DNA of 32,000 nucleotides from Acinetobacter wanghuae (GCF_009557235.1 NZ_CP045650.1:240001-272000), one strand, 5' to 3'. Positions 1,649 through 9,253 are shown, counted from the first letter of the stretch. A program made the numbers and translations. Notes: generated by a model from the sequence alone, not told the origin.

Positions 1649-1724
1649 GGCGTGATAGCTCAGTAGGTAGAGCAACGGATTGAAAATCCGTGTGTCCCCA
1701 GTTCGACCCTGGGTCTCGCCACCA
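1649..1724 (+). tRNA. tRNA-Phe (anticodon GAA)
   Basis: 76 nt: GGCGTGA-TA-GCTC-AGTAGGTA-GAGC-A-ACGGA-TTGAAAA-TCCGT-GTGTC-CCCAG-TTCGACC-CTGGG-TCTCGCC-ACCA. Cloverleaf folds by hand, GAA sits in a 7-nt anticodon loop, CCA is encoded, and the sequence closely resembles E. coli tRNA-Phe. Confidence 0.95.
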
Positions 1725-3762: not shown

Positions 3763-4227
3763 TTAAGCTGCTTTTTTAAACCAAGAGAACCAGCCTTTTT
3801 TCTCAGCTTTTGCTGCAGCTTCAACAGTTGCTTCAGCAGGAGCAGCTTTTGCAGCTTCTACTTGTTCAGCAGCTTCTGTTTTTGTTTCTTCAACTTTTGC
3901 AACAGCAGCGTCTTTTACTTCTTCAGTTTTAGTTACAGTTTCAGTTTTAACTGTTTCTACTTTTGCAGCAGCATCTGCTTTCACTGCAGCAGGAGCAGCT
4001 TTTGCAGCTTCAACTTGAGCCACAACAGCAGTTTTTTCTTCAGTAACTTTAGCTACAACAGCATCAGCTTTAGCAGCAACAGGTGCAGCTGCTTGTTGAG
4101 CAGTTTGAGTTGCTACAGTTTTTACTTGTGATTTAAGTACAGTTACAGGAGTCGCTGTTTCAGCAGCCATTGCAGCAGCAGAAGATGCAACAATTGCAGT
4201 TGCTAGAAGTGTTTTTAGCATGTTCAT
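3763..4227 (-). CDS. Secreted low-complexity Ala/Lys/Glu/Val/Thr-rich repeat protein
   Basis: ORF 3763..4266. The likely start is MNMLKTLLATAIVASSAAAMA/AE (signal peptide) at 4227. The body consists of degenerate A/K/V/E/T repeats with QVEAAKAAPA occurring twice, and the C-terminus is KKGWFSWFKKAA. The F/S/C-rich + ORF 3862..4131 is its shadow. Confidence 0.6.
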   Translation of the reverse strand: MNMLKTLLATAIVASSAAAMAAETATPVTVLKSQVKTVATQTAQQAAAPVAAKADAVVAKVTEEKTAVVAQVEAAKAAPAAVKADAAAKVETVKTETVTKTEEVKDAAVAKVEETKTEAAEQVEAAKAAPAEATVEAAAKAEKKGWFSWFKKAA

Positions 4228-4365
4228 ATATAGCCCCATCAGGAGAAACAAGAGAATTGAGGGCAATATGATACGCTTATAAAAATTAACCGATTGATTT
4301 GTTAAGTTTTATTGGTTGAATAATGGGCTAAAATTACAAAGGGATAACATTCATTTATATGTAAA

Positions 4366-4466: not shown

Positions 4467-5822
4467 TTAGTTTTCCTTTTTCACTAGAGCATCATAAAAA
4501 TCCTGATTTAAGTCATCATATTTAAGCAATTTTCTTTTTAAATTAAGCCAATGGGGCTGAATTTGTTTTTTAATTGCTGGTTCATTCATGATTTTTGCGG
4601 CTCTTAAAGCATAACTTATGTAGTTTCTTTGTCCGATAAAGGAAAACCTTCTATAAATATACTTTTTGTGGGGGATAAGAGGGGCTAACCCTCTATTGAT
4701 CCTAGAAAGGTTAATTTTCAATATGCGCTTATTAGTCATTCGGATAGCTTTGTTAGCTTTATAAGAGTATTTAGCCAATCCAGTATCACGTAATAAAATT
4801 TTGATACCATCATAAGTAAACCCTAAATATTGGAGTTCATCTTTAGAAACACGTATTCCATTTTTAAATTCAGCTATTTTAGTTTTTTTATCTTGTATTG
4901 TTAGCTTCATTTTTGTGATTTGAGTTTGAGAGTATCTTAGCAATTGATACTGATTCGCCCTATCACAAATAATTAAAATATCATCACAATATCGATAATA
5001 CTTAGCATCAAATTTATCCGCTTCTTTCTTTAGTTTTTCATCAAATTTCATCATGTAAATATTTGATAAAAAGGCACTTAGTGCTGACCCTTGAGGAATT
5101 CCTTTTTGTAAATTGTTTTTGCAAATTATTTTATTGCTTCTAATTTTTTCTCTAAATTCTTCACTCGTGCAAAGCCGTTTAAGATCTTTATGATGACGAT
5201 TCAAAGATAGTTTTAGATTTTGATAAACTAAATTTTTTTCAACATAACTGTATTTGGTTATCGATTTAAATACGTTGTAATGATCATTTGGCAGTGCATC
5301 TATGCCTAAAACTTCTTTCCATGCCTGTTTTAATAATTCATGATCTAATTCATCAAAAAAGCTTTTTATATCTAAACAAATCACGGAACAATTTTGACGT
5401 TCTTTAACTTCATCGAAGACTTTTTTTGCAAAATTAATGTTGTTTGGAGAGTTGGGAAGTTTTCTAAATGCTAAAACGCAATCCTGAATTTGCTTTTGTA
5501 TGAGTATTTCTTCATAAAAAGGTGATAAGAGAAATGCGTAGTAAGCATAAATATGACCATCTATATGGGCTGAATATTTTATAGGTCGAATTTTGGGTTC
5601 TTGCTTTTCAACGATAATTTTTCTTGCTCCATTGATGACTTTGAATCCTTTCTTTTTAATTTTTCTAGAAATTAATTCAAAATGAATAAATGGGTAGAAC
5701 GCATGCTTATTAATATTATCTTGATTCGTAACATAGTGATAAATCTTTTCTGATGAAATAGGATAATCAAAATGTAGATATTTTTTTTGTCGATCTTTAA
5801 AAAAATTATGGTCAATACTCAT
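4467..5822 (-). CDS. Stand-alone reverse transcriptase, UG/Abi (defence-associated) type; the architecture fits DRT2/UG2 best
   Basis: ORF 4467..5837 begins at a TTG; the first ATG is at 5820-5822 (MSIDHNFF...). RT palm motifs are read directly: SVICLDIKSFFDELDH (motif A), GIPQGSALSAFLSNIYM (motif B), YYRYCDDILIIC (motif C, with YCDD encoded at 4980-4991) and LQYLGFTY (motif E). About 165 aa lie C-terminal to YCDD with no recognisable nuclease, ATPase, TIR or primase domain. The gene is K/I/N/Y-rich and visibly more AT-rich than its neighbours. Confidence 0.85.
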   Translation of the reverse strand: MSIDHNFFKDRQKKYLHFDYPISSEKIYHYVTNQDNINKHAFYPFIHFELISRKIKKKGFKVINGARKIIVEKQEPKIRPIKYSAHIDGHIYAYYAFLLSPFYEEILIQKQIQDCVLAFRKLPNSPNNINFAKKVFDEVKERQNCSVICLDIKSFFDELDHELLKQAWKEVLGIDALPNDHYNVFKSITKYSYVEKNLVYQNLKLSLNRHHKDLKRLCTSEEFREKIRSNKIICKNNLQKGIPQGSALSAFLSNIYMMKFDEKLKKEADKFDAKYYRYCDDILIICDRANQYQLLRYSQTQITKMKLTIQDKKTKIAEFKNGIRVSKDELQYLGFTYDGIKILLRDTGLAKYSYKANKAIRMTNKRILKINLSRINRGLAPLIPHKKYIYRRFSFIGQRNYISYALRAAKIMNEPAIKKQIQPHWLNLKRKLLKYDDLNQDFYDALVKKEN

Positions 5823-5831
5823 TATTAGAAA

Positions 5832-6140
5832 ACTCAAGGAAAGGCTGACGATAATCCTCGTTTAAACGCCCTATTCTAAGAACAGAGTTCCTTGAGCATA
5901 CCCAAGTACCCAAAATACGTACCCTCTAGAAGAAAGCTTCTACATCGTCTTTAGATCACGAAAGGAATATACTATGAGAAGCATTGATTACATTCTGTGG
6001 AGTACCCTATACCTTGTATTCAGTACTTGGTTCCAGGCAGTATGTAATGTATCACCTGAACTGCTAGAAATTCTTCTAACATTTCTGAGTACAATACTTG
6101 CAAACAGATTACCTTCCCTATGCCCTACAGCATAGGCTTA
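5832..6140 (-). ncRNA. Candidate RT-associated structured non-coding RNA (template/leader RNA), RT-sense
   Basis: The interval between the IS end and the RT start has stops in all three RT-sense frames. It is less AT-rich than the RT gene and contains several hand-foldable stems, which are listed in the findings. Its position directly upstream of the RT on the same strand is where DRT2 and retron ncRNAs lie. The boundaries are guesses. Confidence 0.4.
5974..6135 (+). other. SD-preceded 53-codon ORF antisense to the RT leader, lying within a 79-codon stop-free window (5896..6132); either a neo-like template frame or a small hydrophobic peptide
   Basis: AAGGAA (5962-5967) lies 6 nt before the ATG at 5974. 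Translation: MRSIDYILWSTLYLVFSTWFQAVCNVSPELLEILLTFLSTILANRLPSLCPTA*. It is below the 60-aa cut-off of the ORF track. The other two + frames have stops at 5927/5975 and 5952/5985. Confidence 0.3.
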
Positions 6141-6150
6141 ATAAATATAC

Positions 6151-6157
6151 TAAATTA
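6151..6157. repeat. Target-site duplication TAAATTA (left copy) of the IS982-family insertion
   Basis: An identical 7-mer abuts both IS termini (6151-6157 and 7132-7138). Confidence 0.7.
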
Positions 6158-7131
6158 ACCCGAATCCTGTTTAAGCCGATGACTCCATAATTTGAATTGT
6201 TGGCTTATTTTTATGGATCAGTTGATATGCACACAAGGACGCGTAAATCCCTCCTAGAAATCCATGAACACTACGTGCTTTGCTTGTCACTAAATTGTAC
6301 TGACCTTTCAACAAACTGAATAAAGTCTCTATCTTATTACGCTGTTTTAAGTGATATTTATCTGACTCAGAAAGTTGTGTAGCCTGCATATTTTTTCGAT
6401 GATAGGTAATTAAATCAATGCCTTGCTCTTTTAATCTAATCTTCAGTTCTTGACTAATATAGCCACGATCTCCATACAACTTTGCTTCCACCTCTTTAAC
6501 GAGTCTCTCAACCATTTTTATGTCAGCAACATGTCCATTCGATAAAGCAGAACAAGCAATTTCACCAAATTGGTTCATTGCAATGTGCAATTTACAGCCA
6601 TAAAACCAGCCCATTGAACTTTTACCACGAGATGCAATTTTAGCTAAAGATTTATGGCGTTGAATACGTTGATTTTTACAAACTGGCAGAGTTGTTGAAT
6701 CAATCCATAAATATTGTGTACCTTGGTCTTTCATCAGCACCACATGTAAAGCGTGTAGAGCCAATTGGTGCATATTGATCAGATGAATCATCCTTTGATA
6801 GCAAGGCAAATACTTAAATAAATGGTTTTTATCTTCTTTTAACCAAATGAAAAATGCTTTGAAATTATTGAAATGAGAACATTTGTACCAAATAGCGATA
6901 AAACAGATTTCTGAAATGGTTAAATGAGCAGTTCTGATTCTTAAGGAACGATTACTTTGCTTAAGAAAATTCCAGTAGGTTGCTTCAAATTTAAGAAAGA
7001 AATCATCAATTAAGCAAAATAATTCGGTACTATTAAACATCGGGACTAGAGTTTTAAGTTTTGTGTGGTAACTCAACTGATGGCTCTAGTCCTTCTATTT
7101 TTCAAGTTAATTTCTTATCCGCGATTCGGGT
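6158..7131 (-). mobile_element. IS982-family insertion sequence (974 bp)
   Basis: Terminal inverted repeats are ACCCGAATCCTGTTTAAGCC (6158->) versus the reverse complement of the right end, ACCCGAATCGCGGATAAGAA (<-7131). The first 9 positions match fully and about 14 of the first 19 overall. There is a single DDE transposase ORF, and the element is flanked by a perfect 7-bp direct repeat. Confidence 0.85.
6171..7040 (-). CDS. IS982-family DDE transposase
   Basis: ORF 6171..7076 starts at a TTG; the probable start is the ATG at 7040 (MFNSTELFCLIDDFFLKFE...). The segments ...WIDSTTLPVCKNQRIQRHK...GKSSMGWFYGCKLH...YGDRGYIS...KQRNKIETLFSLLK... match my memory of Acinetobacter IS982-family transposases (ISAba4/ISAba825-like). 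Confidence 0.85.
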   Translation of the reverse strand: MFNSTELFCLIDDFFLKFEATYWNFLKQSNRSLRIRTAHLTISEICFIAIWYKCSHFNNFKAFFIWLKEDKNHLFKYLPCYQRMIHLINMHQLALHALHVVLMKDQGTQYLWIDSTTLPVCKNQRIQRHKSLAKIASRGKSSMGWFYGCKLHIAMNQFGEIACSALSNGHVADIKMVERLVKEVEAKLYGDRGYISQELKIRLKEQGIDLITYHRKNMQATQLSESDKYHLKQRNKIETLFSLLKGQYNLVTSKARSVHGFLGGIYASLCAYQLIHKNKPTIQIMESSA

Positions 7132-7138
7132 TAAATTA
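7132..7138. repeat. Target-site duplication TAAATTA (right copy)
   Basis: See 6151..6157. Confidence 0.7.
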
Positions 7139-7205
7139 AGATTTAAACCACAAACAATTGTTTTATAAAATAAACTCCACATTAAGCGGAATTCTTTTTG
7201 TAGAA

Positions 7206-7294: not shown

Positions 7295-7993
7295 TTAAGG
7301 CTGATAAACAATACCTAAACCTTGAAATGGTAAAGCAATTACATCGACTGCAAGTGCAATTGGGAATAATGCAATTTTTTCCGCTAAAGGTGTGTCAGGC
7401 AAACGCTTTTTCACTTTCTCAGTTTGGTAAACACTGACTTTATAAGCCTTACTGAGCGGCTGTAGGCGCTTAATATTATTGGCGACAGGATAGATCAATC
7501 CTGAAAGTTTAAGTTCAAAGGAATTTGCCGATGATTTTGAGCCTGTACCACATGCACACGGTGCGACCCCATAGCTTTTAAAAAGTACTTGTTCCTGAGC
7601 ACTTAAACCAGAGGGTGGGGCATAGTCGAAACGAATCGTGCCTGAGAATTGATTATTTATCCCATAAGGGTGGTAAAAGCTTAAATCATGGTGAAAGCGA
7701 ATATATTTGGGGTCAAGCTGACTAAACAAAGACTGAAATGCCATTGCACCTTCGGTGATGACATAACTATATTTTTCACCTGCCACAACAACAGCATCAC
7801 TGGGTAGATCTGAAGAAGGCTGTGCAAGTTTCCCAAAAGCAACAACATTGTCTTCAATGAGCGTAACTCGTTCATAATCGTAACGATATTGCGGAGATAC
7901 TAAATCGCTGACATTGCCTCCAACTTTGGAGTTAGGCGAACACCCTGTTAAGCATAATAATGACAAACAAAGAAAAATAGTTTTTTTATACAT
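7295..7993 (-). CDS. Hypothetical lipoprotein
   Basis: 232 aa. The N-terminus MYKKTIFLCLSLLCLTGCSP carries a lipobox (L-T-G-C). I recognise no family. Confidence 0.65.
   Translation of the reverse strand: MYKKTIFLCLSLLCLTGCSPNSKVGGNVSDLVSPQYRYDYERVTLIEDNVVAFGKLAQPSSDLPSDAVVVAGEKYSYVITEGAMAFQSLFSQLDPKYIRFHHDLSFYHPYGINNQFSGTIRFDYAPPSGLSAQEQVLFKSYGVAPCACGTGSKSSANSFELKLSGLIYPVANNIKRLQPLSKAYKVSVYQTEKVKKRLPDTPLAEKIALFPIALAVDVIALPFQGLGIVYQP

Positions 7994-8069: not shown

Positions 8070-9253
<1,184 letters not shown>

Follow-up and report, generated by a model that had tools for sequence, protein, structure and literature searches.

What is encoded by the roughly 330 nt that separate the start codon of a reverse transcriptase (RT) gene from the transposase gene of an insertion sequence (IS) in Acinetobacter wanghuae? 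The locus lies in a 32,000-nt stretch of the genome (NZ_CP045650.1:240001-272000, here called the window, with coordinates counted from its first letter), in which the RT gene occupies positions 4467-5822 of the minus strand and comprises a full-length open reading frame (ORF) for 451 amino acids (aa). Its product matches the PADLOC Drt2 models with E-values of 9.2e-150 and 4.1e-148, contains RVT_1 as its sole Pfam domain (E 7.8e-21), exhibits a YCDD active-site motif that is invariant across the alignment, and is 100% identical to A. wanghuae GFH30_01130; many of its homologs carry the NCBI name ‘antiviral reverse transcriptase Drt2’. Membership in the RT family is thus demonstrated and, as judged from sequence, the leader upstream of the gene belongs to a DRT2 (UG2) system. 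By analogy with the experimentally characterized system of Klebsiella, we consider it quite probable that 5823-6137 represents a DRT2 non-coding RNA (ncRNA), and that complementary DNA (cDNA) synthesized on it with template jumping would consist of 153-nt repeats encoding a stop-less, toxic Neo protein.

In the DRT2 system of Klebsiella, a ~280-nt ncRNA is located upstream of the RT gene and contains a 120-nt template, flanked by two ACA motifs, which is copied by rolling-circle reverse transcription; the -35 and -10 elements reside at opposite ends of the repeat unit and constitute a promoter only across the junction of two units, and the RNA transcribed from this junction, antisense to the ncRNA, bears the stop-less ORF neo (PMC11100668, PMC12039810). 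The unit extends from the first ACA up to, and excluding, the second one, and reported unit lengths range from 111 to 129 nt, all being divisible by 3 (PMC12039810). As pointed out in both DRT2 papers, promoter halves which are located at opposite ends and joined at a junction are likewise encountered in circular intermediates of insertion sequences and transposons. Unlike in those intermediates, however, the joining would here be accomplished by template jumping of an RT on RNA and not by a transposase.

A first-pass annotation of the window had proposed that a stop-less concatemer of the neo type arises from this leader, and its description of the sequence proved to be accurate. Stop codons are present on the minus strand with first bases at 6022, 6009, 5990, 5974, 5958, 5953, 5942 and 5928, and two plus-strand frames are interrupted at 5952/5985 and 5927/5975, respectively. 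In the remaining plus-strand frame (coordinate mod 3 = 1), 79 codons (5896-6132) are free of stops between TGA at 5893 and TAG at 6133. The strand with the open frame is the one complementary to the ncRNA, as is the case for published neo, which is antisense to its ncRNA (PMC11100668, PMC12039810). By itself, the 79-codon frame is only modestly unusual and does not constitute strong evidence, since a stop-free run of at least 79 codons in any of the six frames was obtained for 177 out of 5000 dinucleotide-preserving shuffles of 5823-6156. This rate of 3.5% would accommodate an explanation in which RNA-structure constraint and base composition opened the frame by chance, the product of the RTs of this clade being non-coding; the remark of Tang et al. 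(PMC11100668) that neo is harder to annotate in divergent DRT2 clades points in the same direction.

We gathered 80 loci from species-representative genomes, 13 from metagenomes and 13 contigs containing close homologs; a sole close relative, L081, is among the 13 loci retrieved by scanning metagenomes with the RT. Twenty-two loci, with RT identities of 54-79%, belong to the Acinetobacter clade of the window, and 19 of them are non-redundant. Repeat units were sought in a frame-blind fashion: for each leader, read in the cDNA sense, all candidates of 90-200 nt were considered of which the last 3 nt are the same as the 3 nt preceding the unit, and these were ranked solely by their match to TTGACA and TATAAT in the published promoter geometry (6 nt between the -35 and the end of the unit, and a -10 with nt 12 as its first base; Wilkinson et al., PMC12039810), that is, without using the reading frame. 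In its strict form, the scan demands an exact 3-nt microhomology and a 17-bp spacer. As a positive control, the top-ranking unit of the Vibrio locus L014 turned out to be identical (120/120) to the ‘putative cDNA’ of a V. cholerae locus found among the entries of Table S1 of Tang et al. (PMC11100668). A promoter score of 10 or more was attained by 50 distant loci, in 43 of which the unit length is divisible by 3 and exactly one stop-free circular frame, always in phase 2, is present. The units of these 43 loci are 105-132 nt long, and the microhomology is TGT (ACA in the RNA) in 42 of them, so that the unit geometry and phase found in the window are shared with the TGT-type loci of Vibrio, Pseudomonas, Idiomarina and others (L008-L080).

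Four loci of the Acinetobacter clade were missed by the strict scan: a single-nucleotide difference separates the two sites in each of L098, L105 and L106, and in L099 the correct unit was tied at a score of 9. All four were resolved when the unit was measured between conserved anchors, i.e., GGAAGG-N2 ahead of site 1 and UAAAGACG following site 2. The strict scan fails, in addition, for the Pseudomonas-type loci L011, L013, L016, L018, L019 and L025, for which inspection by eye places GCA instead of ACA at the second border site (…CCUAGCAAUCGCGGC). Imperfect identity of the border motifs thus also occurs outside of the Acinetobacter clade.

For the window, the top candidate of the scan is the plus-strand segment 5957-6109, which comprises 153 nt (51 codons) and possesses a single open circular frame in phase 2; this is the same mod 3 = 1 frame that had been flagged in the first-pass annotation. 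No open circular frame exists in the antisense direction of the unit. The predicted repeat peptide is MRSIDYILWSTLYLVFSTWFQAVCNVSPELLEILLTFLSTILANRSRKEYT. The borders of the unit are defined by an AGAT microhomology: one copy forms the 3' end of the unit (6106-6109) and would be templated by AUC at 6109-6107 of the RNA, the equivalent of the first ACA (ACA-1), and the other immediately precedes the unit (5953-5956, with AUC at 5956-5954) and is where the template jump is predicted to land, being equivalent to the second ACA (ACA-2). A head-to-tail junction at 6109/5957 is predicted to read ...CAAACAGAT/CACGAAAGGAA..., and would place the -35 half TTGCAA (6098-6103), which ends 6 nt before the unit end, upstream of the -10 half TATACT (5968-5973), which starts at nt 12. 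The intervening ACAGAT/CACGAAAGGAA corresponds to a 17-bp spacer that comes into being only upon concatenation, which is the geometry described for KpnDRT2 (PMC12039810). Most clade relatives exhibit TTGACA as -35 and TATACT as -10, the clade pattern of the latter being TATANT with position 5 free to vary. A ribosome-binding site (RBS), AAGGAA at 5962-5967, is located within the promoter spacer, and the putative neo start codon ATG (5974-5976) follows 6 nt further on, abutting the -10; both had been recognized in the first-pass annotation, both are invariant in the clade, and every repeat would carry AAGGAA-N6-ATG.

The homologous unit measures 153, 150, 147, 141, 138 or 120 nt in the 19 non-redundant leaders (120 nt in L104 only) and, over these six length classes, it is without exception divisible by 3 and open in phase 2. 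The corresponding repeat peptides are homologous (MRSIDYILWS...LDNRSRKEYT), and the border sites read AUC/AUC in 15 of the 19 leaders and AUU/AUU in L007. Moreover, third codon positions show the greatest nucleotide diversity (0.403 versus 0.317 and 0.260). Of the codon pairs with a single difference, taken from a peptide alignment for which the tested frame itself had been used, 43% are synonymous in this frame, versus 17% in either of the shifted frames and 22% expected from random changes. These sequence comparisons indicate that the mod 3 = 1 frame, and thus the one chosen in the first-pass annotation, is conserved and under coding-like constraint in the relatives. A chance origin of the open frame is scarcely credible when confronted with a unit that remains divisible by 3 in 19 of 19 leaders and six length classes, with the same phase open in all, and with a synonymous excess which is confined to the mod 3 = 1 frame.

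The same comparison bears on the question of whether the frame simply represents a conventional small gene, namely a chromosomal 53-codon ORF (5974-6135) antisense to the ncRNA which would encode a stand-alone peptide such as a type I toxin. An RBS and an ATG are indeed present, and the peptide is hydrophobic. The chromosomal -10 (5968-5973), however, directly precedes the ATG, its matching -35 sits 125 bp downstream of it, and TCGTCT, with merely 3 of 6 matches, is found at the proper upstream position. Furthermore, conservation among the relatives concerns a circular unit, the length of which is divisible by 3, instead of a linear ORF ending at a fixed stop, which makes the small-gene explanation extremely improbable.

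The alignment of the 19 clade leaders reveals a pseudoknotted structure of 61 base pairs which are 93.8% paired, 28 of them with compensatory changes. None of 500 shuffles reached the observed values, and slid controls attained 43-48% pairing. The predicted ncRNA extends over ~310 nt of the minus strand (5823-6137), its 5' end being placed according to the -10 element TATATT of its promoter. It starts with a 5' hairpin (CCUAUGCU/GGCAUAGG, 6117-6136), the equivalent of the published 5' handle, in which 7 of 8 pairs show compensatory changes. The 3' scaffold features (i) a pseudoknot strand GACGAUG (5943-5949) pairing with UAUCGUC (5847-5853), which is 98.5% paired and covaries between AU and GC at one pair and between CG and UA at another, (ii) a local hairpin GGGUAC...GUACUU (5904-5924), which is 98.2% paired with three pairs compensated in 13 cells, (iii) two small hairpins and a tower-like hairpin (5887-5869), and (iv) a closing helix formed by CUCAAGG (5896-5890) and CCUUGAG (5839-5833). 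A further helix connects GAAGG, located upstream of the template, with CCUUU in the -10/RBS region. All of these helices are intact in the window. The first of the small scaffold hairpins (UAGAAG/CUUCUA; 5942-5927 in the window, columns 247-262 of alignment A2) is missing in L004, L005 and L006, yet these loci keep a 150-nt open unit; the hairpin may thus be dispensable. Within the template, a block at 5980-5996 (plus strand ...GCATTGATTACATTCTG...) shows hardly any variation in the clade. Some of its bases pair with AGUAUU, which adjoins the -35 half, and the remaining conservation may reflect an RT contact or the Neo N-terminus MRSIDYILW.

Rfam does not detect an ncRNA family here, neither when the whole window is searched at the gathering threshold nor when 5700-6300 is searched at E-values up to 1, the only matches being two tRNAs. 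Likewise, a covariance model built from the 3' scaffold of the clade did not yield matches outside of the clade when default filters were applied. With filters switched off, the best matches for 7 out of 16 distant loci fall exactly into the ~130 nt that precede the RT gene; they are individually weak (E 0.0025 to 7) but consistent in their placement. The distant scaffolds are recognized only weakly by the clade model.

The first-pass annotation had proposed jumps between copies of AGTAC (6022-6026 to 5905-5909) or AGTACCC (6001-6007 to 5905-5911), resulting in concatemers of 117-nt or 96-nt units, the former with a 39-aa repeat peptide, and had assumed that the sites are brought together by an 8-bp stem between the inverted-repeat arms CCAAGTAC (5902-5909) and GTACTTGG (6023-6030). 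All of these repeats and arms exist, both units are divisible by 3 and free of stops in the window, and 117 nt happens to be the commonest unit length among close Klebsiella-type homologs (Wilkinson et al., PMC12039810). The predicted conservation of a frame-keeping spacing between the AGTAC motifs is, however, not borne out by the relatives: their 19 equivalents of the 117-nt unit range from 95 to 120 nt, and only 7 of them are multiples of 3, as are 8 of the 19 equivalents of the 96-nt unit; both counts correspond to chance level. The AGTAC and AGTACCC repeats are not conserved either, with the microhomology falling to 1-4 of 5 matches, and most of the resulting concatemers contain stops. 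The equivalents leave the frame because 5910-5956, into which both units run, is not template but scaffold, comprising the pseudoknot strand and two covarying hairpins with loop lengths that vary by single nucleotides. In addition, no -35/-10 pair with conserved geometry is found across the 117-nt or 96-nt junctions, and with the 96-nt unit falls the associated suggestion that the jump would exchange promoter hexamers (CAAAAT being brought to the -10 position of TTGATT, a hexamer which is part of the nearly invariant template block at 5980-5996).

The stem that was thought to bring the jump sites together (6030-6023 with 5909-5902, closing a 113-nt loop) fares no better. It is 76.9% paired in the 19 leaders, a value reached by 216 of 500 shuffled partners; it lacks covariation apart from a single compensated pair, and three relatives are devoid of its 5' arm. 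Most of its 3' arm is instead held in the local scaffold hairpin, where GUACUU (5909-5904) pairs with GGGUAC (5924-5919) with compensations UA/AU/CG and AU/GC/UA. The covariation indicates that this hairpin competes with and displaces the long-range stem, and the palindromic GUAC that it contains accounts for the AGTAC repeats. In summary, the first-pass annotation was probably correct in proposing a stop-less neo-type concatemer and was correct in assigning its strand and frame, but its unit lengths, jump sites, 39-aa peptide and stem have to be given up, and jumping between the AGTAC repeats is very unlikely.

For the 153-nt unit, the following scenario can be drawn up, in which cDNA synthesis, the exact jump site, transcription, translation and toxicity are put forward by homology to the Klebsiella system. 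The RT would bind the pseudoknotted 3' scaffold (~5830-5953) and the 5' hairpin (6117-6136), and would copy the template in between in the direction of increasing window coordinates. On reaching ...AGAT (6106-6109), the cDNA would re-pair through its 3' end with the identical motif that follows the template in the RNA (5953-5956 of the plus strand), and synthesis would restart at 5957 to yield head-to-tail 153-nt repeats. In double-stranded cDNA, each junction would set TTGCAA and TATACT at a 17-bp spacing, and transcription antisense to the ncRNA would produce an mRNA with one stop-free frame and 51 codons per repeat. The resulting Neo, a hydrophobic repeat protein with two helices, would arrest growth. 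Consistently, the 51-aa repeat is hydrophobic (grand average of hydropathy, GRAVY, 0.46), and the AlphaFold2 model computed without an alignment for the linear stretch 5959-6132 (58 aa) exhibits two helices broken at Ser-Pro, with a mean predicted local distance difference test score (pLDDT) of 81. The peptide includes the stretch SIDYILWSTLYLVFSTWFQAVCNVSPELLEILLTFLSTILANR, and the predicted junction peptide reads ...ANRSRKEYTMR. Tang et al. predicted helical Neo repeats (PMC11100668), and the two-helix model for the window is in line with their prediction.

Several features are shared with K. pneumoniae DRT2. Both systems comprise (i) a single RT gene with an upstream ncRNA on the same strand, which consists of a 5' hairpin, a template and, as predicted for the window, a pseudoknotted 3' scaffold, (ii) two identical trinucleotides at the borders of a unit divisible by 3, with an antisense stop-free frame in the same phase relative to the junction, (iii) the same distances of the promoter halves (the -35 separated by 6 nt from the unit end, the -10 beginning with nt 12, and 17 bp between them only once units are concatenated), (iv) a helix connecting sequence upstream of the template with the -10 region inside it, the GAAGG/CCUUU helix representing the counterpart of the ‘template hairpin’ of Wilkinson et al., and (v) a hydrophobic helical repeat peptide. 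The -35 is translated as Leu-Asp-Asn in the predicted Neo proteins of most clade relatives and in Vibrio Neo; in the window, TTGCAA results in Leu-Ala-Asn.

On the other hand, the Acinetobacter clade is set apart from the TGT-type loci by RT identity, junction motif, unit length and start-site layout. The RT of the window is ~25 residues longer than, and ~42-45% identical to, the TGT-type RTs sampled. The unit comprises 153 nt (120-153 nt in the clade), compared with 120 nt in Klebsiella and 105-132 nt in the distant loci sampled; with 138-153 nt, all clade members except L104 are beyond this distant range as well as beyond the published 111-129 nt. The RBS is located upstream of the -10 and the ATG abuts it, an arrangement which is invariant in the clade, whereas in the published type both are located at least 13 nt downstream of the -10. 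The Acinetobacter entries among those listed in Table S1 of Tang et al. (PMC11100668) belong to a different RT lineage.

Several observations weigh against a neo-type function of the 153-nt unit, or at least against its details. The border motif is AUC (GAT in the cDNA) in the window and its clade, compared with ACA (TGT) in Klebsiella DRT2. In three relatives, the two border sites are mismatched (AAC/AUC, AUG/AUC and AUU/AUC), so that the exact jump nucleotide is uncertain. Considered alone, the window attains a stop-free circular frame in 4.2% of shuffles, its -35 (TTGCAA) and promoter score (9/12) are among the weakest in the clade, and the in-frame construction of the peptide alignment and the low significance of the individual covariance-model matches outside of the clade have to be kept in mind. 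Because the ATG directly follows the -10, a transcript started at a junction cannot use the ATG of that same repeat; transcription starting ~7 nt after the -10 would exclude it, and translation would have to begin in the next repeat. An IS insertion, considered below, may have silenced the system in this strain. Taken together with the conservation of structure, geometry and frame in 19 leaders, these points leave the neo-type 153-nt concatemer the quite probable reading stated at the outset.

The IS insertion affects the promoter of the ncRNA itself. The element (6157-7132, minus strand) belongs to the IS982 family: its transposase gene (6171-7076) encodes Pfam domain DDE_Tnp_1_3 (E 5.9e-47), exact 10-nt terminal inverted repeats (GATTCGGGTT) are present at both ends, a 5-bp target duplication, AAATT, is found at 6152-6156 and 7133-7137, and plasmid copies with 87% identity carry an IS982-family annotation. 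The ncRNA/RT promoter has its -10, TATATT, at 6144-6149 on the minus strand; relatives exhibit TATATT or TATAGT 17 bp after TTGTGA-like boxes. The native -35, TTGTGG (7148-7153, minus strand), has been displaced and is now ~1 kb away from its -10. Reconstruction of the empty site restores TTGTGG-17 bp-TATATT, which matches the relatives L003, L005 and L097. At the end of the IS, a hybrid promoter TAAACA-18 bp-TATATT (9/12 matches) arises, and the transposase gene points in the same direction as the ncRNA. Since the -35 has been split from the -10, this strain may have to rely on the weak hybrid promoter, or on transcripts continuing from the transposase gene, for expression of the system. As a side observation, the sequence upstream of the RT in L020 (Idiomarina sp.) resembles the 3' end of a transposase-like coding region and not an ncRNA, and may represent another DRT2 leader broken by a mobile element.

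One may then ask if the system is silenced or decaying in A. wanghuae, in that IS982 took the -35 from the sole promoter of ncRNA and RT, so that little or no ncRNA, RT and neo would be made and the open frame would be a relic. The position of the IS within the 17-bp spacer with its clean 5-bp duplication, the single transcription start that published differential RNA sequencing (dRNA-seq) gave for ncRNA and RT in KpnDRT2, and a junction promoter which is among the weakest in the clade are all in line with silencing. Conversely, the RT ORF is of full length, no helix of the ncRNA is impaired, and both the hybrid promoter at the IS end and read-through from the co-directional transposase gene could still provide transcripts. 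On balance, we regard silencing or decay as rather unlikely, albeit as the most probable of the alternatives to an active neo-type system. A broader proposal, which combines the insertion with the differences listed above, is that the Acinetobacter clade constitutes a distinct DRT2 subtype, characterized by an AUC jump, a repeat of up to 51 codons, an RBS in the promoter spacer and an ATG abutting the -10, and that this strain exhibits natural rewiring or silencing of such a system by IS982. We put this combined proposal forward tentatively, as an idea that may well hold but for which the balance is still slightly unfavorable.

As for the surroundings of the locus, the DRT2 unit is located directly downstream of the thiolase gene fadA and a terminator in most Acinetobacter relatives (L001-L007, L094-L106), which suggests a conserved insertion spot; in the window (8081-9253 region), an extra ORF for 232 aa (7295-7993) separates fadA from the DRT2 promoter. 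On the downstream side of the RT, different genes are found in different relatives. In the window, an ORF for a low-complexity protein of 167 aa rich in Ala, Lys, Glu and Val (3763-4266, minus strand) is located ~200 nt downstream of the RT gene; the protein exhibits an N-terminal hydrophobic segment and has no Pfam or PADLOC match. The two tRNA genes of the window (1649-1721 and 1900-1972) have equal Rfam scores and are 251 nt apart.

The mechanism by which an RT builds a stop-less gene on an ncRNA was described in 2024, and the locus described here does not constitute a discovery of principle. It would, however, refine our view of the DRT2 family. The ACA motif would not be essential, and it is the identity between the two border motifs that appears to be conserved; the range of neo repeat lengths is extended; and exact junction coordinates are now given for an Acinetobacter system. 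The altered layout of promoter, RBS and start codon could change the number of repeats required before Neo is made. If the proposal of a distinct subtype turns out to be true, translation would start only from the next repeat, and at least two template jumps would be required for a neo mRNA that can be translated, a requirement that would provide a built-in threshold against accidental toxicity. The IS982 element in the promoter may, finally, be viewed as a natural experiment in the tolerance or tuning of a self-toxic defence by its host.

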